NCBI GenBank assembly: GCA_965140415.1
Contig: OZ223209.1
Span: forward strand, 5,568,001 to 5,632,000
Direction of reading: 5' to 3'
DNA length: 64,000 bases
From: Myxococcota bacterium
GTDB taxonomy: Bacteria; Myxococcota_A; SURF-8
Of this stretch, positions 59,755-61,357 are shown one piece after another; within the stretch, counting starts at the first letter, position 1, and each line of letters opens with the position of its first letter. Made by a program: the position numbers and the translations under genes. The notes beneath the pieces are model-generated. The model saw nothing but the letters and a program-made list of their open reading frames with translations, made no database searches and was not told the origin of the DNA.

Positions 59755-60142
59755 CTGTTCCTCCTCCATAATTTCGATTGCTTTCATCCTTTACTGTTGT
59801 AACACATCGTTTTTATTTTGGGTATCCTAATTATTCGATTCGATGCAGCAAGTAGGGAACCGAACGGAAACGACCTTTGACAAAGCGCAGATAATAAGAA
59901 AAGCACCTCAACCACCCGAACACCCAAGAGATTGGTTGCTATTTTCCGCTTTCTGGATCGATTTTTTTCACTCTTCTCCAGTGTGTGGGTGATAGCGGTA
60001 GAAATTGACCGAGCCGGAACCGTAGCTCACACGTGGCAGATCTATTTTCTTTAATAATTCCATGCGTGTAGTTAACCCTGCGTCGAAAAACAACCTGTAA
60101 TCCAAGGTGAATGCGCTTTCATAGTAGCGACTGTTATTAAAA

Positions 60143-61078
60143 TCAAGTGAATTCTGGATTCCAGTTCTCATTATTTTTTATCATGGTATTCATGATAACC
60201 AATAGTTTTCGCATGGAGGCCACCACCGCAGTCATTTTCAGTTTGCCACTGTCAACAAGTCTTTCATAGTAAGCACGAATAACAGGATTATGCTGAATTG
60301 CCACCAGGGTCGGCATGTAAAGTTGCGTACGCAACTGCCTGCGTCCTCCACCGGTCATTCTCTTTCCTCTGAATGTGCCACTGTCACGGTTGATAGGTGC
60401 AACACCGACAAGCGCGGCAATCTGCTGCCGGTTGTAAACACCCAATTCAGGCAATTCTGTAACAAGTGCATTCGCTGTAATCTGGCCTATACCCGGCACC
60501 GTCTGAAGCATTTCGGCTTTGGCTTTTAAGGCGTTGTCAGTTGAAACAGCCTTTACGATGGCCTGTTCGACCATGGCTATTTCCCGATCCAGGGTTTTTA
60601 TTACCGCTTTCAAGCTTTTAGCAATCATCTTGATATCTGCATGTTCCATGCGATTTTTCTCTCTGGTTCTCATGTCGATCAATTGACGCCGCCTTGCGGT
60701 CAAATGTTTAAGATGACGAGCATTTTCGCTTATAGGTTCCTGGGGTTCTGGTTTGAGCCTGGCTGCAAAATCGGCAATAACGGCAGCATCGATTTTGTCT
60801 GTTTTAGCCATGATTCCCAAAGCTTTTGCAAAGCTGCGAATGCGCCTGGGGTTGACCACCGAAACGGGTACCTTGTGCTTTTGAAGAAAACGAGCCCGTT
60901 TGTCTTCATAACCCCCTGTTGCCTCCAAAACAACGATGTAAGGGTCGATTCTTTGGATGTCTTTAAGAGCCTTACGCATACCTGAAGCGGTGTAATCGTA
61001 ATGTCTTCGCTTTCCACTGGAAGCCATTTCCACATCGAAACACATTTTTGAAATATCGATCCCAACACATTCATTCAT
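60143..61078 (-). CDS. IS110 recombinase (RuvC-like DEDD plus Tnp Ser domain), apparently intact
   Basis: [40 protein letters not shown]. Confidence 0.95.
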
Positions 61079-61079
61079 G

Positions 61080-61280
61080 ATCACCCTTCCTTGCAAATGC
61101 GAGCTCATTTGTTAAAATGGCTCCAGCGACTGTTCGGGTTTACCCGGACGAAACGGACGACGGATCCGGCTACCAACGGGTTTCTGGACCCTAGGTCGGA
61201 ACGATCTCGCCGCCCGATGCTCCCCGGGCGGCCGCCCGGGGAGCATAATCATAACACCACTGTTCCAATAAACAGTCGCC
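61080..61280 (-). ncRNA. Predicted bridge RNA (5' hairpin, target-binding loop, donor-binding loop)
   Basis: LTG TTCCGACCT (61201-61193), RTG TTGGTAG (61176-61170), LDG ACAGTCGCT (61133-61125), RDG TGCAAG (61095-61090); perfect 30-bp palindrome 61217-61246; exact RNA ends are inferred. Confidence 0.85.
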
Positions 61281-61296
61281 TGAAAGGGATAATACA

Positions 61297-61357
61297 AGGT
61301 CGATCAGATTTTCTGACCGACAATCCAATTCATGTCGGACAGAAAATTTGTCCGACA
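61297..61357 (+). repeat. REPIN family D copy interrupted at its GTAG foot by IS110
   Basis: AG-GTCGATCAGATTTTCTGACCGAC-spacer-GTCGGACAGAAAATTTGTCCGAC; homologous to 62644-62705. Confidence 0.85.

Follow-up and report, generated by a model that had tools for sequence, protein, structure and literature searches.

A single-copy IS110-group insertion sequence in a Myxococcota genome, very probably guided by a bridge RNA encoded in its left end

The locus

The stretch of DNA analyzed here (the window) covers 64,000 nucleotides of a Myxococcota bacterium, positions 5,568,001 to 5,632,000 of contig OZ223209.1 (assembly GCA_965140415.1). Between a methyltransferase gene (58915-59787) and a radical-SAM gene (61722-62597) it carries an insert of 1,169 bp at 60128-61296, read from the minus strand, with a CT core at either side and, in order, a 218-nt left end, the gene for a 311-aa recombinase and a 15-nt right end. 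The insert is very probably an intact, single-copy insertion sequence (IS) of the IS110 group, with a recombinase guided by a bridge RNA that the left end encodes.

All features of the element lie on the minus strand and are given here in its 5' to 3' order. Ahead of the element stands a hairpin like the repetitive extragenic palindromic (REP) sequences of other bacteria, GTCGGTCAG-AAAAT-CTGATCGAC (61299..61321), which ends in the 7-nt left target GATCGAC (61305-61299); consensus copies of this REP-like sequence read CTGACCGAC, and the occupied copy has a C-to-T change at left-target position 3. The left copy of the CT core follows (61297..61298), a junction identical in 20 related copies, and after it the left end (61079..61296), which begins TGTATTAT and contains a -10 box and the entire bridge RNA. 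The terminus CT/TGTAT (a slash marks the element boundary) is kept across relatives. Near this terminus lie the -10 hexamer TATTAT (61289..61294) of a split promoter, part of a hexamer pair seen in the family, and a leader segment, GGCGACTGTT (61271..61280), which complements the left donor guide over a 9-nt run and repeats the right-end tip in inverted orientation. A G+C-rich 5' hairpin with a 13-bp stem (61219..61244) is the counterpart of the IS621 5' stem loop.

The two modules of the presumed bridge RNA come next. The target-binding loop (TBL; 63 nt, 61154..61216) is closed by a basal stem, CGGGCGGCG (61216-61208) with CGTCGTCCG (61162-61154), and holds the left target guide (LTG) TTCCGACCT (61201-61193), an inner hairpin GGGT...ACCC (61191-61178) and the right target guide (RTG) TTGGTAG (61176-61170), then the putative handshake base C 61169. 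A 14-nt linker separates it from the donor-binding loop (DBL; 57 nt, 61083..61139), whose basal helix (ACCC 61139-61136 with GGGT 61086-61083) overlaps the Shine-Dalgarno sequence; inside are the left donor guide (LDG) ACAGTCGCT (61133-61125), an inner hairpin (61123-61101, with GAGC...GCTC at 61122-61101) and the right donor guide (RDG) TTGCAAG (61096-61090), then the putative handshake base G 61089. The recombinase gene occupies 60143..61078, and the -35 hexamer TTGATT of the split promoter (60141..60146) overlaps its TGA stop codon. The right end (60128..60142) closes ...ATAACAGTCG at 60128; its final 7 nt, ACAGTCG (60134-60128), are the left donor and are preceded by ATA. Beyond it lie the right copy of the CT core (60126..60127) and the right target ACTAT (60121..60125), in which AC closes the REP foot CTAC.

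A previous sequence-only reading of this DNA had named the stems, loops and guide strings on the minus strand, and each was found in its place on reading 59700-61700. That reading had also reconstructed the empty site as GATCGAC-CT-ACTA: the dinucleotide CT does stand at both junctions (61298-61297 and 60127-60126), and the joined flanks give this sequence with a single CT. Its two statements on the donor loop hold as well, ACAGTCGCT being identical at 9/9 positions to the right end plus core (60134-60126) and TGCAAG complementing the left-end CTTGTA with one G.T wobble. In the 64-kb window ACAGTCGCT occurs only twice, at the right end plus core and in the second leader loop; 0.37 occurrences are expected by chance, and 9 of 100 shuffles gave at least two anywhere, though not at these two prescribed places.

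A conserved fold in the left end

The left end has a fold z of -6.3 against shuffles, and its structure recurs in related elements. For 42 distinct aligned leaders, the structure counted comprised 29 pairs in four helices (basal and inner, for the target and donor loops). Pairing holds in 92.3% of 1,201 cells, as against 75.7% in shuffles, and none of 500 shuffles reaches any of five measures; compensatory changes are present at 22 of the 29 pairs, and sliding the 3' partners as a control brings pairing down to 30-47%. Helices 1 and 2, those of the target loop, are 94-98% paired, with compensatory change at 13/17 pairs. The 5' hairpin is seen by eye at the same place in nearly all relatives, without conservation of its sequence. 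A linker hairpin (columns 80-83 with 88-90), which the single-sequence fold favors over the donor-loop basal helix, was rejected at 52.7% pairing versus 51.6% in shuffles.

Both modules are made up of a basal stem and an internal loop with its inner stem-loop, and the 5' stem loop stands ahead of both. [quoted passage not shown] Compared by that published description, the module order here agrees; together with the covariation of the stems across the 42 leaders, this upholds the IS621-type TBL/DBL layout that the sequence-only reading had proposed. Because a profile of the 42 leaders matches the left ends of ISEc32 (E 4.6e-6) and of a Klebsiella plasmid element (E 1.2e-7) over nearly the whole length of the profile, the bridge RNA falls into one RNA family with the RNAs of named IS110-group elements. 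A search of the genome for orphan bridge RNAs with a sequence profile recovered just this element and one truncated relic.

Guides that change with their DNA

A scan of one genome per species kept the best 80 of 467 confirmed relatives, with sources in Myxococcota, Planctomycetota, Zixibacteria, Desulfobacterota and other metagenome-assembled genomes. Four guide segments were taken by alignment column and four DNA arms by position; 79 of 81 sources yielded 49 distinct elements, and two truncated loci without the RNA were left out. Over 39 usable elements the LTG agrees with the left flank at an average of 5.90 of 7 non-core positions, versus 3.69 when shuffled (maximum 4.46), and over 42 elements the RTG agrees with the right flank at 3.32 of 5, versus 2.11 (maximum 2.67); 0 of 5,000 shuffles matched either value. 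Since the elements in this test are related, the shuffle counts overstate independence. More than 12 different guide words each adjoin their own matching flank, with co-occurring left target words such as CCCGAC, CCCATC, TCTGCC, TGACAC and CAGACC, and right pairs GTAG/CTAC, CGTCAG/CTGACG, ATTAAAG/CTTTAAT and GACGAAG/CTTCGTC.

Position by position, LTG position 1 matches in 11 of 35 distinct pairs and is not guiding, and positions 2-8 match in 27-35 of the 35; for the four RTG bases GTAG, 54-58 of 58 pairs agree. On the donor side, all seven non-core positions of the LDG equal the right-end tip in 7/7 distinct pairs, and where the donor varies (ACAGCCG, ACAGTTG) the LDG carries the matching change. 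Each RDG position pairs with its counterpart in CTTGT in 16 or 17 of 17 distinct pairs; the G.T wobble of the RDG, present in 12/17, is thus a family trait. The 5' side of the target loop reads in the sense of left target plus core, and its 3' side is antisense to core plus right target, a pattern described for IS621 in the published account (PMC11208160). C 61169, 3' of the RTG, complements the fixed donor G7, and G 61089, 3' of the RDG, complements target C7; by position, these two bases would suit a handshake role of the IS621 type. In this copy the LTG agrees with the occupied site at 6/9 positions and with host REP variants at 7-8/9, and 6/7 RTG positions pair with the right flank when one G.T wobble is counted.

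The recombinase

The protein matches the Pfam families DEDD_Tnp_IS110 (PF01548; E 2.8e-26, 92.6 bits) and Transposase_20 (PF02371; E 1.8e-21, 76.8 bits), and by sequence it matches the solved recombinases of ISCro4 (E 8.5e-38) and IS621 (E 7.7e-34) over residues 5-302. The GID, EAT, KTDxxDA and SG motifs align with those of both, and D8, E52, D94, D97 and S233 are invariant among 32 aligned homologues. The protein thus shows the two parts that define its family, a DEDD RuvC-like domain at the N terminus and, at the C terminus, a Tnp domain with the catalytic serine; the description of an intact DEDD+Ser IS110 recombinase in the sequence-only reading is borne out by the domains, the sequence matches to solved recombinases and the catalytic residues alike. 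The family is a very large one: in the homologue search, 7,960 of 8,000 scored candidates fell at E <=0.001, and the closest non-self protein is 65% identical; the top plasmid-borne relatives, ISEc32 included, show 37-44% protein identity.

The longest open reading frame (ORF) call gives 321 aa from 61108. The actual start is the ATG at 61078, 5-7 nt past AAGGG; close homologues are about 311 aa long and align from this ATG, so the longer call is 10 codons too long.

The host target

A REP-like doublet borders the element on the left; its second hairpin forms the flank, the 3' arm running into CTAC. A pattern census of the genome found 47 hairpins of the form GTCGGNCA-loop-TGNCCGAC, with 40 strand-wise reads followed by CTAC and the variable stem base complementary in 88 of 94 strand-wise reads. 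The family is small, and Y1_Tnp genes in the genome gave 10 matches. One Y1_Tnp (IS200/IS605-type) match with an internal TAG, at G000:C1:4582216-4582710, lies about 300 nt from a REP-like hairpin, possibly an association like that of REP-associated tyrosine transposases. The first hairpin of the doublet beside the element is the REP-like copy at 61334-61356, and another REP-like doublet lies at 62646-62701, about 1.3 kb off, past the radical-SAM gene.

Ahead of CTAC the genome has GCCCGAC 18 times, GACCGAC 14 times and GTCCGAC 10 times, and the LTG, (T)TCCGAC-CT, agrees with the GTCCGAC variant at all guiding positions. The sequence-only reading had placed the insertion at the foot of a REP hairpin different from that of IS621, and the left flank, a repeated hairpin arm followed by CTAC within this 47-hairpin family, agrees with it. 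Its predicted target, TTCCGAC-CT, fared less evenly: REP variants in the genome match it at 7 or 8 of 9 positions, the occupied site at 6/9 only. A dedicated family of perfect targets was also considered and dropped, because TTCCGACCTAC occurs 3 times and composition predicts 2.95.

Hairpins beside the core are common in the family. A perfect hairpin arm of at least 6 nt ends no more than 2 nt from the core in 36 of 66 distinct sites of relatives, versus 20 of 264 control windows; the hairpin occupied here carries a G.T mismatch in its stem. A second type of REP, GATGGGCA...TGCCCATC-CT-AC, is present in the same genome at G000:C1:1223560-1223590, where it adjoins a solo right end; it is the target type of related elements in two other genomes (G001 and G002), with LTG CCCATC.

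Copies, relics and relatives

The sequence-only reading had proposed aligning the flanks of all genomic copies as a check. The genome has one full copy; in relatives the ends stay constant and the target guides covary with the flanks, as given above (0/5,000). Full elements are carried by 4 of 40 related genomes searched, in at least 7, 6, 6 and 1 copies, with proteins 57-65% identical to this one, and all 20 related copies have the same ends (CT/TGTAT..., ...ACAGTCG/CT) and differing flanks.

Remnants of such elements are also found elsewhere in the genome. A relic at G000:C1:826062-826193, 84% identical, retains the left end with the 5' hairpin and half of a target loop, namely the first half with the same LTG, TTCCGACCT, and ends directly past the RTG; there is no REP foot at its left flank. 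Two solo right ends (G000:C1:1223478-1223519 and 1582715-1582743) consist of the last codons plus ...GATAACAGTCG-CT-AC, without gene or left end.

A putative junction promoter and a model of the life cycle

Joining the two ends brings together TTGATT and TATTAT with 17 nt between them. The same split recurs in the family: both hexamers score at least 4/6 at 17-nt spacing over the junction in 35 of 38 distinct pairs of right and left ends, as judged from sequence only.

On the model of IS621, excision would yield a circle in which the right end gives the -35 and the left end the -10, 17 nt apart. The junction promoter would then drive an RNA of about 200 nt with the 5' hairpin, the TBL and the DBL. 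The start of this RNA is predicted near 61282. In the guided complex the RTG, (TTG)GTAG, would pair with top-strand CTAC(...), the handshake bases C 61169 and G 61089 may read the G at donor position 7 and the C at target position 7, and a tetramer of the recombinase, with its DEDD RuvC-like domain and its catalytic Ser233, is predicted to exchange strands at the CT core. We infer that this copy would be transcribed, that its RNA would bind the protein and that it may be mobile.

Weighing the alternatives

Several results weigh against a working, RNA-guided element at this locus. Searching 59800-61700 against Rfam 15 at permissive settings gave a best E of 0.95, which is chance level, and none near a gathering score; a simple scan of the integrated copy found no minus-strand sigma-70 promoter upstream of the RNA. 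No public run on record as RNA contains this locus, and there is a single full copy in the 5.98-Mb genome. The occupied GATCGAC mismatches the LTG at positions 2 and 3; in relatives these two positions agree in 27 and 33 of 35 distinct pairs, respectively, and ten GTCCGAC-CT-AC sites with an 8/9 match stand unoccupied. Contigs of two public DNA runs over 59700-61700 contain no empty-site joint and no circle junction; one contig covers flank, element and flank. The site mismatch may reflect mutation after insertion, a tolerated distal mismatch, or hairpin-aided recognition as reported for ISPpu10. In five relatives the radical-SAM gene side alone is conserved and the intergenic region is not, and no orthologous empty site was found.

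There is a modest likelihood that the element is of the type proposed and that this copy is stranded, a recent or decaying arrival immobile in its host, with guides that record its history. The single full copy, the poor match of the occupied site beside ten better ones left empty, and contigs without empty site or circle would all suit such a history, as would the three pieces of related elements at other places in the genome and two further broken IS110-family genes. Decay is nevertheless hard to see in the element itself: the 311-aa frame is open with all five catalytic residues present, the four RNA helices and four guides are intact, and both promoter halves are there. Low copy number, moreover, is common for such elements, and IS621 is described as excising poorly (PMC13626964). 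Two further readings would remove the guide RNA or move it. The left end might be a mere 5' untranslated leader with subterminal repeats bound by protein, DNA sites read by the transposase with no RNA guide, and the repetition of the right-end tip both at 61271-61280 and in the donor-loop segment does resemble classical inverted repeats. We consider this very improbable: the target-loop segments covary with flanking host DNA outside the element, the segments show a strand asymmetry (5' side same-sense, 3' side antisense), the stems that enclose the loops show covariation as hairpins of RNA or DNA, and the guide mechanism is experimentally established for homologous recombinases in the published work (PMC11208160, PMC11208158). 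That the element is instead of the IS1111 type, with a seekRNA guide downstream of the gene, has next to no probability. The protein superfamily is shared, yet the structured RNA lies upstream of the gene in a left end of 218 nt, the right end has 15 nt, and long subterminal inverted repeats at both ends are absent; membership of the IS1111 group, marked by a long RNA-bearing right end, was accordingly rejected.

Relation to known systems

An intact bridge-RNA-guided element thus remains the preferred reading, and as such it is an ordinary further example of a mechanism described in 2024. The published accounts (PMC11208160, PMC11208158, PMC13626964) cover bridge RNAs with their loops, the CT core and the split promoter as well as REP targeting and the handshake bases, and they predict thousands of orthologues. 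With IS621 of Escherichia coli (PDB 8WT6) the element shares the two-domain DEDD+Ser recombinase, the long left and short right end, the CT core, RTG-CTAC pairing, a target at the foot of a REP or, here, REP-like hairpin and a junction-split promoter; the RNA order of 5' hairpin, target loop, linker and donor loop is alike by published description, and ATA...TAT surrounds the donor arms in both. A natural mismatch between guide and target is tolerated in IS621 too, whose natural ATCAGGC differs from the encoded ATCGGGC. The differences lie in the left target, (G)NCCGAC here as against ATCAGGC, and in donor positions 6-7, which are C,G here whereas the IS621 paper gives A,T (dA6, dT7; PMC11208158), the handshake bases being changed to match (C, G). 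The RNA is about 200 nt long here compared with 177 nt, and the host is an uncultured Myxococcota bacterium, in which the element is known from sequence alone.

Among solved structures, ISCro4 (IS622; PDB 9T56) is the best sequence match, with shared domain order and catalytic motifs, a likeness at the protein level only; its bridge system is reported to have been applied to human genome rearrangement (10.1101/2025.05.14.653916). ISEc32, on an E. coli plasmid (NZ_CP097722.1), has a left end that matches the leader profile and a protein 37% identical, with different guides and targets. The same is true of an IS110-family element on a Klebsiella oxytoca plasmid (NZ_CP129617.1): its protein is 41% identical, and its four guides can be read at the same places and match its own flanks and ends, yet guides and targets differ from those of the element here. 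These matches qualify the distant lineage that the sequence-only reading had supposed. It stands for the protein (E 7.7e-34 to IS621) and not for the RNA, which is recognizably homologous to the ISEc32 leader, with donor arms near the family consensus. ISPpu10 of Pseudomonas putida is described as inserting beside a stem-loop encoded by the target, which serves as a second determinant of specificity (10.64898/2026.03.19.712850); the hairpin arms that abut the core in the sites of relatives (the 36/66 versus 20/264 given above) are a likeness to it.

The element adds a natural bridge recombinase system, readable in full, from an uncultured lineage. Its target arm, unlike that of IS621, and a donor arm that differs at two core-adjacent positions make it a possible orthogonal part for bridge editing. 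Its relatives, which include those on enterobacterial plasmids beside those from Myxococcota, Planctomycetota, Zixibacteria and Desulfobacterota, show traits that hold across phyla: targeting of the foot of repeated hairpins and fixed bases at position 7, C in the target and G in the donor. For annotation, it accounts for a 1.2-kb insert with flanking repeats between the methyltransferase and radical-SAM genes. The findings leave the known bridge-RNA mechanism unchanged.

A Shine-Dalgarno sequence within the donor loop

The least ordinary points of the element are its mismatched occupied site, the Shine-Dalgarno sequence within the donor-loop helix and a partly shared 9-nt mask of the donor guide. 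In the basal helix of the donor loop, CCC 61138-61136 pairs with GGG 61086-61084 of the Shine-Dalgarno, 5-7 nt ahead of the ATG. This CCC/GGG helix is kept in 39-41 of the 42 leaders, and changes of CCC to UCC or CUC are compensated in 4. A full-text literature search found no paper that treats, by title or abstract, a Shine-Dalgarno within the donor-loop helix.

In the single-sequence fold, GGCGACTGTT pairs with the LDG. Motifs like it occur at +10 to +25 of the left end in part of the family, and a run of at least 6 nt complementary to the LDG is present in 9 of 42 distinct leaders; as a family-wide feature the mask was rejected on this count, being absent from elements with a different LDG. 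It is conceivable, if unlikely, that these parts form a self-limiting circuit, in which recombinase bound to the donor loop would shut off its own translation, the leader mask would close the donor guide until protein binds, and a given transcript would serve either as guide RNA or as messenger.

Surroundings of the element

The stretch from the methyltransferase gene to the radical-SAM gene looks like non-coding filler with repeats; short minus-strand ORFs that flank the element (61333-61533 and 59971-60126) are without a Pfam match. Farther off, at 56472-58676 on the plus strand, a 734-aa ORF has an N-terminal region with a GAGCS-type motif, and after it come eight or more TPR-like repeats of 34 aa that are nearly identical to one another (...AEKYYKKALEADPTHATNLGNYA...). 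At the element boundary itself, the target hairpin (61299-61321) together with the T-rich tip of the left end (61289-61298) scores as intrinsic-terminator-like on the minus strand, and such a site could stop read-through into the element.

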